Assembly: GCA_944371305.1 (NCBI GenBank)
Contig: CALVXM010000004.1
Span: forward strand, 1-59,136
DNA: 59,136 nt
Reading direction: 5' to 3'
DNA from: an uncultured Bacilli bacterium
Lineage (GTDB): Bacteria > Bacillota_I > Bacilli_A > RF39 > UBA660
Under the pieces are notes generated by a model, which saw nothing but the letters and a program-made list of their open reading frames with translations, did not search any database and was not told where the DNA came from. Both the position numbers and the translations under genes were made by a program. The first letter of the stretch is position 1, and the number at the start of each line of letters is the position of its first letter. Shown here one piece after another: positions 35,594 to 43,627 of this stretch.

Positions 35594-35622
35594 ATTTTAC
35601 CAAACAATATATATCTTGTCTA
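35594..35622 (-). promoter_or_regulatory. Cassette promoter copy 3
   Basis: TAGACA-17 nt-TAAAAT with TG extension; same spacer as 37016 and 43599 apart from one base. Confidence 0.7.
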
Positions 35623-35745
35623 ATTAAAATTACCAATTATAAATTGATAATTTATTTATCATCAACCATTAAATCTTATTATTTAATTATTCATTTTAAC
35701 AATCGTTTACCAATTAATGATATCCCAGATACCCTAATTATAACA

Positions 35746-36492
35746 TTATTTATTTTCTATATTTTTTATATCGAAATCAATTATTTCTTGTGTATTAATA
35801 TTAATATAAAATAATACATTGTAAATATTATTTTCAGTTTCTATATTATACCTCACTAAAAACATATTATTTTCATCATGAGGAATATATTTTTTGTCTC
35901 TAGAAACTCTTTTAATATCTTTTAATTCTATTACTAATTCATTTAAATTGTATATTTTAGGTATTATATCACTATCAATTTGTTTATACCAATTATGATA
36001 AGAAGCAGTCATTATAATAACGAAAAAAGATATAAATATCAAAATTGAAATTATTATCATTTTCTTTGATTTTGTTTTTTGTCTAGATCTTACTTTTATT
36101 ACTAAATTTTTGTCAATGACATTGGTTTTATATACGTAATCTCCAATACTTTTATTACTTATTAATATTGTTATAATATTGACTCCTAAAAATAATAATG
36201 AAACAATATTCCTTTTTATAAGGATTTTTTTACTATCAATTAGTTCTCCATTATCGCTAACAATAACTAAATTAAATATTTTCTTTCCTAAACTATAATT
36301 GTTTAAAAATATATCTTTTAAAACTATTAATAATAAAAATGATGAACTACAAACTATAACAACCAAAACCAAAAATGAAGTAGAAGATAATAAATCTGGT
36401 TTAAAACAAGTTGTAACATTCATTAAAATGGTAGATATTAAAACAATAATTGTAAAATCTACAAAATTTGATAATAACCTTTTTATTTTCAT
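35746..36492 (-). CDS. RDD family membrane protein with C-terminal extension
   Basis: KRLLSNFVD (R-D), SLGKKIFNL, LIKRN, IGDYVYKTNV. Confidence 0.8.
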   Translation of the reverse strand: MKIKRLLSNFVDFTIIVLISTILMNVTTCFKPDLLSSTSFLVLVVIVCSSSFLLLIVLKDIFLNNYSLGKKIFNLVIVSDNGELIDSKKILIKRNIVSLLFLGVNIITILISNKSIGDYVYKTNVIDKNLVIKVRSRQKTKSKKMIIISILIFISFFVIIMTASYHNWYKQIDSDIIPKIYNLNELVIELKDIKRVSRDKKYIPHDENNMFLVRYNIETENNIYNVLFYININTQEIIDFDIKNIENK

Positions 36493-36595
36493 AATTAAAA
36501 CTACCTCAATTCATCATAATATATTATTTAAGAAAATATTAACAATTTTAAATTAGTACTTTTTACTTATATCTAAGGCTATTTATTACTATACA

Positions 36596-37005
36596 TTAAA
36601 TCCTATTTTTAAACGAATTCCAAGCAAAGCTAATTTTTTGTAAAATATTATTAACGGTATTGATAACGGAATTTACAATTTTATTCGCTGTATTTACTAC
36701 AGTCTTACAAATAGTTTTCATACCATTCTTCCAATGGCCATATAAATTTTTTATTGTATCAAATAAAAAGCTAGATATATCAAAACTATTAATAAAATTA
36801 TTTAAAACATAAACATATAAATTATTTCCTAACAAATTATTTTTCTGAACTAATATGTCATCAGCATTTATAAATCTACCCCAAGTAGGATTATAATATC
36901 TACTATTTAAATAATATAAACCAGTCTCATCATCATAATAATAACTACGATATCTAAATGGATTAATATATGCTATATGATTAGTATCAGTTATTACATT
37001 ATCTA
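36596..37005 (-). pseudogene. Orphan Rhs core plus truncated C-terminal tip (cassette 2)
   Basis: Start-less frame TDTNHIAYINPFRYRSYYYDDETGLYYLNSRYYNPTWGRFINAD...NLYVY; DPxG degenerate (DISS); short tip. Confidence 0.8.
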
Positions 37006-37015
37006 ATCTATATTT

Positions 37016-37044
37016 ATTTTACCAAACAATATATATTTTGTCTA
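37016..37044 (-). promoter_or_regulatory. Cassette promoter copy 2
   Basis: TAGACA-AAATATATATTGTTTGG-TAAAAT, preceded by the AAATATTGAT/ATCAATATTT hairpin. Confidence 0.75.
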
Positions 37045-37086
37045 ATGGAAAAATATTGATATATTTCTACATCAATATTTTAAAAC

Positions 37087-37914
37087 TTACTCATTCCAAT
37101 TATTATATACATTTATAATATATTCTTCAAATTCTTTCCAAAATATATAAGTATACAAACCAATACTGTTAGGATCTTTATTTGGTATTTTTTTATAGCT
37201 TTTATCGTTACCTAAAAATATTAATTTATTTTTTGGTATTACTCTTAACGATGTGTTTAAAAAACTAATTAAATAACTATCAATATTATTTATTTTATTT
37301 TTCTTATACATATGTAAGCCACATTGTGGTAAATATTCATATTTTTTTAACTCTTCAATTGATAATATATTATCGCTTATCACATTGTAAACATGTACTC
37401 TTGGTATTATACAATCATTTTCCCAAGTATCATTATCAACTTTTACAAAAAATATATATTTATTATAAAATCCATTCTCTTTAGCATATTCACCATCAAA
37501 CTTATAGGCATATGTATCACCGTTTTGCCAATCTGTTATATATGGTTTGCGAATATATATTTTCTTTTCTTCTGGCTGTTGACTATTCAATTTAACTTCT
37601 AATTCTTCTAATACTTTTTTTCTCTTACTATATAGCTTTTCATTTTCTTTCCAAAGTTCTAAATTTTCAGGCATTAGTTTAATGGCTGTATTCTTTACTT
37701 CATCTGTTAATCTTCCGTACTTCCATTGTGTATCAGCTAATGCTAACCAAACCAAAGGTGTATCACAATCTTCATAATCATAAGCTTCCCATGATTCAAT
37801 AACTTTATTCATTGCTTCTTCAGAAGTCATTCCTTTTTTTAAATATCCTATGTATTCCTCTTTTACATCACATGTTACATCATCTGAATATAAACCTGGT
37901 CCCCATGCTCCCAT
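37087..37914 (-). CDS. Immunity protein paralog (DUF4259-like N-terminus)
   Basis: MGAWGPGLYSDD start behind GGAGGT; colinear paralog of 43670-44497; preceded by a LTYVGN-stop toxin remnant. Confidence 0.8.
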   Translation of the reverse strand: MGAWGPGLYSDDVTCDVKEEYIGYLKKGMTSEEAMNKVIESWEAYDYEDCDTPLVWLALADTQWKYGRLTDEVKNTAIKLMPENLELWKENEKLYSKRKKVLEELEVKLNSQQPEEKKIYIRKPYITDWQNGDTYAYKFDGEYAKENGFYNKYIFFVKVDNDTWENDCIIPRVHVYNVISDNILSIEELKKYEYLPQCGLHMYKKNKINNIDSYLISFLNTSLRVIPKNKLIFLGNDKSYKKIPNKDPNSIGLYTYIFWKEFEEYIINVYNNWNE

Positions 37915-37983
37915 ATTTTTTACCTCCTTAATTTCCAACATATGTTAATAATTATCCATATTTACTAATATTATTAAACAACT

Positions 37984-42153: not shown

Positions 42154-42177
42154 TTACATCACCTAATTATAATTTTA

Positions 42178-42280
42178 TTAAGGGTAATACCAAATATGAT
42201 GATGACTATCATTAGTTTTTCCATCCCAAGGATGATAATGAGGATAATAACTTTTTTATTTTCATAATTAAAACTTCCTC
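42178..42280 (-). pseudogene. Chimeric scar: RDD gene start fused to a toxin tail
   Basis: 42243-42280 matches 36470-36507 at 36/38 nt; it continues into PHYHPWDGKTNDSHHHIWYYP-stop. Confidence 0.7.
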
Positions 42281-42304
42281 GATTTGTTATAATGTTTTAT
42301 ATAA

Positions 42305-42465
42305 CATTTAAATAAAAAATAAGATCTTCTATTTGTAGATTTTCATAATCTTCAACATTTAAATTATTAAATAATTTGATTGTTTAACAAATATTTTTTA
42401 ATTTAAATAAACAACGCAAAATTAAAGAATGAATAATAGGTATATTTACAATTTTTCAAATCCAT
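42305..42465 (-). pseudogene. Relic paralog of the 34804-35343 gene
   Basis: NLNVEDYENLQIEDLIFY versus NLNIGDYKNLQLQIEKPIFY, with an in-frame stop. Confidence 0.7.
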
Positions 42466-42472
42466 TAATATC

Positions 42473-42823
42473 CTAATTAAGAACTTTTGTTTTATATAAC
42501 ATATCACCTATTCTTTTATTAAAAATTATTAATAACAACAGTTCAATTGGCCATATAATAACTGTTAAATTTCTTAATATTTTAAAAATATTTGATACTT
42601 CTTTGTTGTCGTTTGTTGATAATTTTAATTTACAAACTATTTTACCTATACTACCTTCTTTAAATGTTAGATCTTTCAAACTAAATAATATTATCATTAA
42701 GACATCACATAATAAATTACTTTGAATATTAAAAGTTTTAGTTACAATGAAAAATATACTTAATCCAATAAACATTGTAATATAAAAATCAATTACAATG
42801 GAAAAAATTCTTTTAAAATTCAT
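42473..42823 (-). CDS. RDD family membrane protein
   Basis: KRIFSIVID, SIGKIVCKL, ILRNL, KRIGDMLYKTKV; start 42823 behind AGGGAG directly after the orphan tip stop. Confidence 0.85.
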   Translation of the reverse strand: MNFKRIFSIVIDFYITMFIGLSIFFIVTKTFNIQSNLLCDVLMIILFSLKDLTFKEGSIGKIVCKLKLSTNDNKEVSNIFKILRNLTVIIWPIELLLLIIFNKRIGDMLYKTKVLN

Positions 42824-42839
42824 ATTGTATAATACTCCC

Positions 42840-43585
42840 TTACTTAAAAATCGCTCTATATCCATGGTAAAACAAATTACTTTCATCAAATTCTAATCCA
42901 ACTTTAAATCCACCACCAACCTTAAAGTATGCCTCTGCTTCTAATCCTATAAAGATTGTTTTTTTTGAAACATCGACATTATCAATACCAAAATACCATT
43001 CATCAGATTCTAAATTTGTTATTTTTGAGATCCCAACATTTGCAAATTTTATAGAACTTTCAGATGTAATACTATGAAACTCATTCCATTTGGGTAATGG
43101 TTTTATTGTCGTTGTCGATTTATATGTAATATGTTTTGCCCCAACTTTAAGACCACCAAAATCTGTAGTAACTCCATAACCATAACCACTACTAACTTCA
43201 AAAACAACAGCTTTCTCGAGCTCTGATTTCGCTATTTCTTTAACAATATTTGAAGTAGATTTTAATACTTGATTTGTTGCTGGATTTTTCGTAATACCTA
43301 AAACCGTTTTTACACTATCTATTATATCTTTAAAAGACGGGAGCTTAAAATATCCAGTCGGATCACTATATAATATTACATTATTCGTACAATACGCAAA
43401 TAAATTATAATGCAAAACATAATCACTTAGTTGCAATATACCATCAGCATTAATAAATCTACCCCAAGTAGGATTATAATATCTACTATTTAAATAATAT
43501 AAACCAGTCTCATCATCATAATAATAACTTCGATATCTAAATGGATTAATATAGGCTATATGATTAGTATCTGTTATAACATTAC
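42840..43585 (-). pseudogene. Silent orphan Rhs core plus intact C-terminal toxin tip (cassette 1)
   Basis: Open frame without start or RBS: LGNVITDTNHIAYINPFRYR...NLFAYCTNN...SDPTG, then a ~170-aa Gly/beta-strand-rich tip. Confidence 0.85.
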
Positions 43586-43598
43586 CTAATTTATATTT

Positions 43599-43627
43599 AT
43601 TTTACCAAACAATATATATTTTGTCTA
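43599..43627 (-). promoter_or_regulatory. Cassette promoter copy 1
   Basis: Identical to 37016-37044; follows the immunity gene terminator. Confidence 0.75.

Follow-up and report, generated by a model that had tools for sequence, protein, structure and literature searches.

A terminator-like hairpin and promoter-like motif at the head of start-less Rhs remnants in an uncultured Bacilli bacterium

The rhs island and its three promoter-like motifs

We analysed a promoter-like motif that recurs in front of Rhs-derived sequence in the genome of an uncultured Bacilli bacterium (assembly GCA_944371305.1). The window, by which we mean the whole stretch of 59,136 nucleotides (nt) that was analysed, is contig C4 (CALVXM010000004.1) of a 1.14-Mb genome of 26% GC in 47 contigs. 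All genes of the region and all copies of the motif are on the minus strand. Read along that strand, the gene order is the main rhs gene, a gene for a 284-amino-acid (aa) protein, a hairpin, motif copy P1, the Rhs remnant orphan 1, a 116-aa gene and about nine further genes and relics; these are followed by a paralogue of the 284-aa gene, a hairpin, motif copy P2, the Rhs remnant orphan 2, a gene for a 248-aa RDD protein, a hairpin, motif copy P3 and a 78-codon relic, and then by a gene for a 179-aa membrane protein, a gene fragment, a 260-aa gene, a strong terminator and lemA.

In minus-strand reading the motif is TAGACA-AAATATATATTGTT-TGG-TAAAAT. A scan of the window with the pattern TAGACA-N14-TGN-TAAAAT revealed exactly three matches, at 43627..43599 (P1), 37044..37016 (P2) and 35622..35594 (P3), which bears out the positions reported in an initial annotation of this DNA. 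P3 differs by one substitution (A8G). Transcription starts are predicted at ~43594-43590 for P1, ~37011-37007 for P2 and ~35589-35585 for P3. No match to the pattern was found in 100 dinucleotide-preserving shuffles, and the three copies are real and beyond chance. Further copies of the motif were absent from the 47-contig genome at up to five substitutions, a hidden Markov model (HMM) profile of the whole module (described below) detected no other copy in the genome, and an Rfam search with the module gave no family match. Four short contigs of this assembly (C41, C45, C46 and C47) have 51-55% GC compared with ~26% in the rest of the genome and are probably binning contamination.

All three copies carry a -35 element (TAGACA) that matches the consensus at 5/6 positions, a -10 element (TAAAAT) that also matches at 5/6, a spacer of 17 nt and a TG dinucleotide at -15/-14. 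We examined a strict promoter class with these properties (-35 of at least 5/6, spacer of 16-18 nt, TGn, -10 of at least 5/6) across the genome. This analysis revealed 129 sites, 82 of which fell in the 13.5% of DNA outside open reading frames (ORFs) of at least 120 aa, an enrichment of ~11-fold; a same-strand ORF start lay within 300 nt of 62 of these 82 sites. Judged by its hexamers, spacer, TG element and the enrichment of its class, the motif is a good candidate for a sigma-A-type promoter, in agreement with the initial annotation; that it would be strong, constitutive and independent of rhs regulation, as the annotation also proposes, is conjectural. The same annotation had also placed the TAGACA -35 element at an M23 gene. 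The sequence TAGACA-17-TGATATAAT is indeed present there, at a gene with a Peptidase_M23 domain match, but it is a generic match only: two sites of the TAGACA-17-TGATATAAT type occur outside the repeat, compared with 1.2 expected. The promoter spacer (43604-43619, 37021-37036 and 35599-35614) holds a 16-nt near-palindrome, ACAAAATATATATTGT, with 7/8 pairs by reading and 6/8 in the sister species described below; this sequence may serve a dimeric regulator as operator or may be mere AT-rich symmetry. An XRE-type helix-turn-helix gene is located in the window at 57098-57808.

Each motif copy directly follows a hairpin. T1 (43633..43664) has a 14-bp stem and a folding energy of -12 kcal/mol (z -5.8; 0/200 shuffles as stable), T2 (37050..37081) also reaches -12 kcal/mol (z -5.6), and T3 (35627..35653) has an energy of -7.1 kcal/mol and is homologous to a terminator hairpin of the sister species. 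All three were more stable than shuffled sequence and have UUUUU or UUUU directly after them. Terminator-like hairpins had been noted ahead of two copies; the folding energies support their presence but correct the count to 3/3. A terminator scan identified no terminator-like site between the P motifs and the downstream genes that have a ribosome-binding site (RBS) and ATG.

Rhs-derived sequence without a start codon follows each copy, a claim of the initial annotation that was upheld by TIGR03696 or BLASTP matches and by a start-codon scan. TIGR03696 is the RHS repeat-associated core domain, with a cut-off of 32.5 bits. Orphan 1 (42840..43598; 61.9 bits) comprises an Rhs core end and a toxin tip in an open frame without a usable start, and orphan 2 (36596..37015; 58.0 bits) comprises a core end and a short tip, again with no usable start. 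Both core ends share ~95% nucleotide identity with positions 45110-45280 of the main rhs gene over ~165 nt, a length of homology that would be enough for recombination. Orphans 1 and 2 thus have the features of displaced cassettes, in that the core end is kept and the N-terminal body and start codon are gone. The sequence behind P3 does not share these features: it is a 78-codon relic of mid-Rhs YD repeats (35349..35582) in the leader of the 179-aa gene, with 46% identity to residues 1307-1388 of the main Rhs protein (BLASTP, E 2e-15) and no toxin tip. The proposal that every cassette carries a toxin tip therefore did not hold, since tips are present in two cassettes only and the third is a mid-Rhs relic. 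A scan of the three remnants for in-frame ATG, GTG or TTG codons found none with a Shine-Dalgarno sequence in front, and orphan tip 1 lacks Met codons altogether.

The genes behind the three remnants have GGAG or GAGGT 8-11 nt before their ATG. With no canonical start in the remnants and an RBS and ATG on the next gene, the layout is that proposed for a silent tip and a readable immunity gene. The gene behind orphan 1 encodes a 116-aa membrane protein (42473..42823; weak RDD match below cut-off; GGAG 11 nt before ATG) and is a candidate immunity gene for that orphan. The 248-aa RDD-family membrane protein behind orphan 2 (35746..36492; Pfam RDD, 28 bits; GAGGT 10 nt before ATG) is likewise a candidate. 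Behind P3, the 179-aa membrane protein (34804..35343; GAGGT 8 nt before ATG) belongs to the family of a 184/197-aa gene of the sister genome G015. Searches against Pfam and NCBIfam assigned no function to most of the genes downstream of the module.

The main rhs gene (44511..50471) encodes a protein of 1986 aa with RHS_repeat, YD_repeat, Rhs_assc_core and DNRLRE domains and a polymorphic C-terminal tip. The first copy of the 284-aa gene (43670..44524) occupies its immunity position, with a start that overlaps the rhs stop. This protein had no Pfam or NCBIfam match, an exact-protein look-up also returned no match, and it is 62% identical to its paralogue, copy #2 (37087..37941). Copy #2 is an orphan immunity-type gene recognised by its ORF and its paralogy, with a DUF4259 match below cut-off only.

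A hairpin and promoter-like module in sister species

To place the motif in a wider context, we drew on 100 relatives, among which it was present in only two genomes, both of the same genus: G015 (3 copies) and G017 (2 copies). Scans of public genomes and metagenome contigs identified just the same two sister metagenome-assembled genomes (MAGs) and strain variants. G015 and G017 show the same synteny as the window (ProRS, a 148-aa gene and radC). The module belongs to the same variable radC-lemA island in all three genomes, which are of a lineage of uncultured Bacilli with small genomes. In both sister genomes, directly after radC and again after other genes, AAATAAAGTGCCAATTtagAATTGGTGCTTTTAAT forms a hairpin of 9-12 bp with a U-run (-11 kcal/mol); behind it come TAGACAAAATATGTATTGTTTGGTAAAAT and a leader of 90-150 nt, and then a non-Rhs gene with its RBS and ATG. 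By this comparison, the motif is the core of an ~85-nt module made up of a hairpin and a sigma-A-like promoter, and is not Rhs sequence.

The hairpin part of the module occurs in two versions. Copy 3 and the sister-species module are 88% identical over 72 nt, hairpin included, and the sister-species version has at least four G-C pairs. The hairpin of copies 1 and 2 is unrelated to it in sequence and identical in position. When the six homologous copies are compared, 97% of pair cells are paired; one change is compensatory and five are one-sided but keep the pair. This is consistent with a maintained hairpin, although the changes are too few for statistics.

Ten instances of the motif are available: three from the window, five from the sister species and one each from two metagenome contigs (L016 and L047). 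They represent two upstream and at least seven downstream contexts. The joins to Rhs are of three kinds, at LGN(V/I)ITD in copies 1 and 2 and L047, at IKNLQ in L016, and in the middle of the YD repeats in copy 3. The segment common to all ten instances is ~35 nt long and extends from ~3 nt upstream of the -35 element to 3 nt past the -10 element. Thus, across these contexts, the boundaries of homology coincide with the functional edges of a promoter. Such a coincidence is predicted by selection for promoter function and, equally, by a recombination joint.

We also considered whether the motif derives from Rhs coding sequence. It was not found in the main rhs gene, and the homology of the copies to that gene starts only downstream of the -10 element. 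At the corresponding position of the main rhs gene, given by the L016 join, ~11/35 positions match by eye, with no likeness beyond the AT-rich background. An origin from the last YD repeat ('YGKI') was tried, and the alignment reaches TGGTAAAATAAA only with small gaps. This origin was ruled out by the L016 join 93 nt upstream, by the different Rhs region behind copy 3 and by the sister-species motifs that have no Rhs behind them. The short TGGTAAAATAAA likeness to Rhs may have served as microhomology for a deletion.

In the sister species, the module stands ahead of genes with relatives near Rhs loci. In G017, the first gene after the module has a homologue in G013 that immediately follows the Rhs tip (E 4e-26), and the 256-aa gene downstream of the module in G017 is homologous both to a gene two places behind the Rhs gene of G021 (E 7e-61) and to a 248-aa gene of the window at 38730..37984. 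The 184/197-aa gene downstream of the module in G015 and the 179-aa gene downstream of P3 are of the same family (BLASTP, E 7e-8). Read from position, the sister-species module appears to head stand-alone immunity-type genes; in the window, it stands at the head of units where such a gene comes after an untranslatable Rhs remnant. A leader of ~115 nt after the module is common to G015 and G017 (1828-1945 in L009 and 1983-2100 in L010) and lies on unrelated genes of 147 aa and 256 aa. Rearrangement breakpoints are therefore also located at the 3' end of this leader.

An RHS core domain was identified in 5/30 genomes of the genus, and module-bearing orphans were identified only in the window's genome. 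The check proposed in the initial annotation, to look for the motif at other Rhs loci, gave a negative result outside this lineage: those of G013, G015 (contig C7), G021 and G024 all lack the module. Its presence upstream of non-Rhs genes and its absence from these four loci show that the module is not Rhs-specific. Candidates for diverged copies in the genus were rejected, as the BLAST and HMM matches below the five good ones were coding-region noise or an unrelated TTGACA promoter. In G024 (L064; contig C45, 1596-2525) an orphan-like Rhs C-terminal fragment is broken by an in-frame TAG. Its upstream region is a different one, with a terminator and then ~400 nt of non-coding sequence that lacks the module.

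Recombination at the cassette heads and relics of the island

Copies 1 and 2 of the motif are part of a repeated 300-nt block with 94% identity. Besides the hairpin and the motif, this block includes the final ~65 nt of the 284-aa gene and ~165 nt of Rhs core end. These two copies therefore count as one observation. The 284-aa genes themselves are mosaic (43670-44540 versus 37087-37953), with 90-100% identity in the first ~125 nt and the last ~65 nt and 60-78% identity in the middle. A strain contig from another sample (L049) is 99.945% identical to the window over 12.7 kb. All seven of its differences fall within 132 nt (37078..36947) that extend over the hairpin and P2 into the beginning of the Rhs core, and each is the base present in copy 1. 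This tract points to either recent gene conversion or assembly cross-talk between the repeats.

Two metagenome contigs carry further arrangements. L047 (1562 nt; positions 171-1562) encodes a protein identical to that of 284-aa copy #2, followed by the hairpin and the motif, and then continues into orphan tip 1 instead of tip 2. This contig may have arisen by recombination, it may span the junction of a duplication or circle, or it may be a chimera formed at a 69-nt exact repeat (coverage 3.8x). L016 (1318 nt) is a strain variant: behind 284-aa copy #2, the motif meets Rhs at a point 93 nt upstream of the join seen in the window (IKNLQNDVLG...). Relative to L016, the window form looks like the product of a later deletion between TGGTAAAATAAA and TGGTAAGATAA. 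Taken together, these variants suggest that recombination at the cassette heads is ongoing.

The module is found at three boundaries among ~17 genes, and the roughly nine genes between orphans 1 and 2 are without it. A fourth fragment of Rhs core, 56 nt long and assigned by its repeat family (39726..39781), also has no module upstream. The array is thus not the regular repeat of terminator, promoter, Rhs, tip and immunity gene that the initial annotation described. The segment at 42215-42265 has an RBS and the beginning of an RDD-type gene, with 85% identity to the start of the 248-aa gene, but its frame ends at a stop after 17 codons; from its sequence it is a deletion relic ahead of two tandem paralogous genes. 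The island closes before lemA with a terminator (33741..33772) that has a 13-bp stem followed by a T-run. No recombinase or integrase domain was detected in Pfam scans of ORFs of at least ~80 aa between lemA and ProRS.

A different repeated element, TCTAGCGCTTTTCTAGT(A/G)AGTA(C/T)CTTCATA(A/T)AAT, is present on the minus strand at 50508-50541 and 51624-51657, just upstream of the ATG of the main rhs gene and of a 212-aa gene with a Gp10_C domain, with a 113-aa gene between the two copies. It has a good -10 element and no sigma-70 -35 element, and may be the main rhs gene's own control site.

Proposed insulated expression of immunity genes and its alternatives

We consider it probable that the three copies represent a small portable module of terminator and promoter, which insulates orphan immunity genes and drives their expression through the silent Rhs remnants. 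According to this model, the hairpin and its U-run would end the upstream transcript, whether of the rhs-immunity operon or of the preceding cassette, and the sigma-A-type promoter right behind it (TAGACA, 17 nt, TGgTAAAAT) would start a new one. That transcript would cross the start-less Rhs remnant into the next gene with an RBS and ATG. In this way it would reach the genes for the 116-aa (weak RDD match), 248-aa (RDD family), 179-aa and 260-aa proteins, all of them probable orphan immunity genes. The orphan tips would stay silent until homologous recombination with the main rhs gene via the ~165-nt core end reloads them. Termination at the hairpin, initiation at the motif and immunity conferred by the downstream genes are each inferred from the arrangement of the DNA. 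Initiation at the motif is likely, because the strict promoter class is enriched outside ORFs, the motif has a fixed position behind a hairpin, and the sister-species copies are located where a promoter is needed.

Several observations weigh against this interpretation. Duplication or gene conversion, and not selection, accounts for the identity of copies 1 and 2. More generally, all copies are so alike, even in their spacers, that promoter function and recent common descent cannot be told apart by conservation. Loose hexamer matches are barely above chance in DNA of 26% GC (236 compared with 201 expected), and T1 and T2, being AT-rich, are not recognised by a strict terminator scan. The module is missing in front of most genes of the array and of one Rhs fragment, and it is present in only 3/30 genomes of the genus. 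The genes downstream are candidates for an immunity function by their position only.

On the same evidence, the module could instead be a passive junction scar, copied together with neighbouring DNA by duplication, deletion or gene conversion, with a promoter-like appearance that is incidental or disused here; any expression of the downstream genes would then come from other promoters or from transcripts that extend beyond rhs. The placement of copies 1 and 2 in one 94%-identical 300-nt repeat is in line with such a history, as is the finding that near-identical strains differ only by seven bases across P2, all matching copy 1. The island is also rich in relics (the truncated RDD gene start, a piece of the 230-aa gene and the Rhs stubs), and the orphan module of Escherichia coli EC93 is expressed by read-through (PMC3150448). 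We nevertheless regard a passive scar as unlikely. The boundaries of homology equal the functional edges of a promoter in several independent contexts, the position of the hairpin is retained where its sequence has been replaced, the sister-species module is found exactly where a promoter is required, and the motif class strongly predicts intergenic, gene-proximal positions. Also improbable, and slightly more so, is that the module of ~35-85 nt is mainly a joint for the excision, insertion or swapping of cassettes, with promoter activity secondary. Such a handle could act through homologous recombination between cassette heads or through a host Xer-type recombinase on the AT-rich near-palindrome of the spacer, ACAAAATATATATTGT. 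It would account for the three different joins between P and Rhs and for the different genes behind the same module, for L047, in which 284-aa copy #2, the hairpin and P are joined to orphan tip 1, for the gene-conversion tract centred on P2, and for the sister-genome contigs that break at the module; rAID-1 arrays offer a precedent of repeated intergenic sequences (10.1101/471110). However, the island contains no recombinase ORF, a by-eye comparison with the dif site of Bacillus subtilis gave only ~4-5/11 matches per arm, and breakpoints also lie outside the module, for example at the end of the shared 115-nt leader. In addition, L047 is possibly an assembly chimera, and gene conversion needs no special site.

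A further alternative is that the promoter drives low-level synthesis of the orphan tips from non-canonical starts, which would make the cassettes internal modules resembling toxin-antitoxin pairs. Internal promoters in Salmonella give transcripts of tip and immunity gene, and a CTG start there yields toxic protein (PMC7043789); in the window, an ATA codon at 43577 has AGGT 6 nt upstream. We judge this reading highly improbable, as neither tip offers an in-frame ATG, GTG or TTG with a Shine-Dalgarno sequence before it, tip 1 is without Met, the frames of the remnants are closed by a stop inside the -10 element, and copy 3 heads a relic that has no tip. The preferred terminator-promoter module could also have a second function. 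The ~35-nt core and its hairpin would then be a dedicated cassette head that insulates and expresses immunity units and is in addition the preferred joint at which cassettes are trimmed, exchanged and homogenised. A head with both roles would amount to an integron-like logic achieved by ordinary homologous recombination with no integrase; we mention this combination as a tentative and rather doubtful extension.

Correia elements of Neisseria are short repeats that can provide neighbouring genes with both a terminator-like hairpin and an outward-facing promoter. Unlike these and similar repeats resembling miniature inverted-repeat transposable elements, the copies described here are confined to one island and are not dispersed through the genome, and no terminal inverted repeats or target duplications were visible in the module alignment. 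In Bacteroidales, arrays of recombinase-associated acquired interbacterial defence (rAID-1) include a conserved XerD-family recombinase, and integron-like repeats separate most of their genes (Ross et al., 10.1101/471110). The island shares with them an array of orphan immunity genes (candidates here) and repeated intergenic sequences, and varies between strains and species as they do. In contrast to rAID-1, it has no recombinase and 3-5 module copies per genome, and its repeat reads as a terminator and promoter.

Closer parallels come from the orphan modules of Enterobacteria. In Salmonella Typhimurium, promoters inside the conserved rhs coding sequence transcribe tip and immunity gene, both main and orphan (Starsta et al. 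2020, PMC7043789). As with the Salmonella orphan rhs-CT/rhsI pairs (PMC7043789; Koskiniemi et al. 2014, PMC3967940), displaced tips and immunity genes are located downstream of the main rhs gene, with core-end homology to it and a promoter (here a promoter-like site) of their own for tip and immunity gene, independent of the main gene. The Salmonella promoter is within rhs and was duplicated with it; the motif described here, in contrast, lies outside Rhs sequence, behind a hairpin and without rhs homology, and its module is common to non-Rhs genes in the sister species. A start comparable to the CTG from which Salmonella makes toxin was not seen in the remnants. E. coli EC93 produces the immunity protein of its orphan cdiA-CT/cdiI module, whereas no product of the start-less toxin piece was detected (Poole et al. 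2011, PMC3150448). The arrangement in the window, known from sequence, is similar in that the orphan toxin piece has no initiation codon and the immunity gene has its own start. It differs in that EC93 relies on read-through from the upstream cdi promoter, whereas a hairpin and a separate promoter-like site stand between the units here. The present arrangement has in common with these systems the logic of a silent tip and an expressed immunity gene; it differs in a separate promoter unit that would be insulated by a terminator, lacks rhs homology, also serves non-Rhs genes in the sister species and has no recombinase near it.

Orphan toxin and immunity cassettes are regarded as a silent arsenal and, at the same time, as a shield from the toxins of neighbours, and how the shield stays on while the weapons are off is known in only a few Enterobacteria. 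The sequence of the window suggests a clean solution in an uncultured gut bacillus with a 1.1-Mb genome, in the form of a terminator-promoter unit that heads Rhs remnants and that, in sister species, would drive immunity-type genes standing alone. If the module is active, expression of immunity would be uncoupled from the control of the toxin gene itself. The ~35-nt element provides a concrete object for testing this and a marker for such islands in related MAGs.

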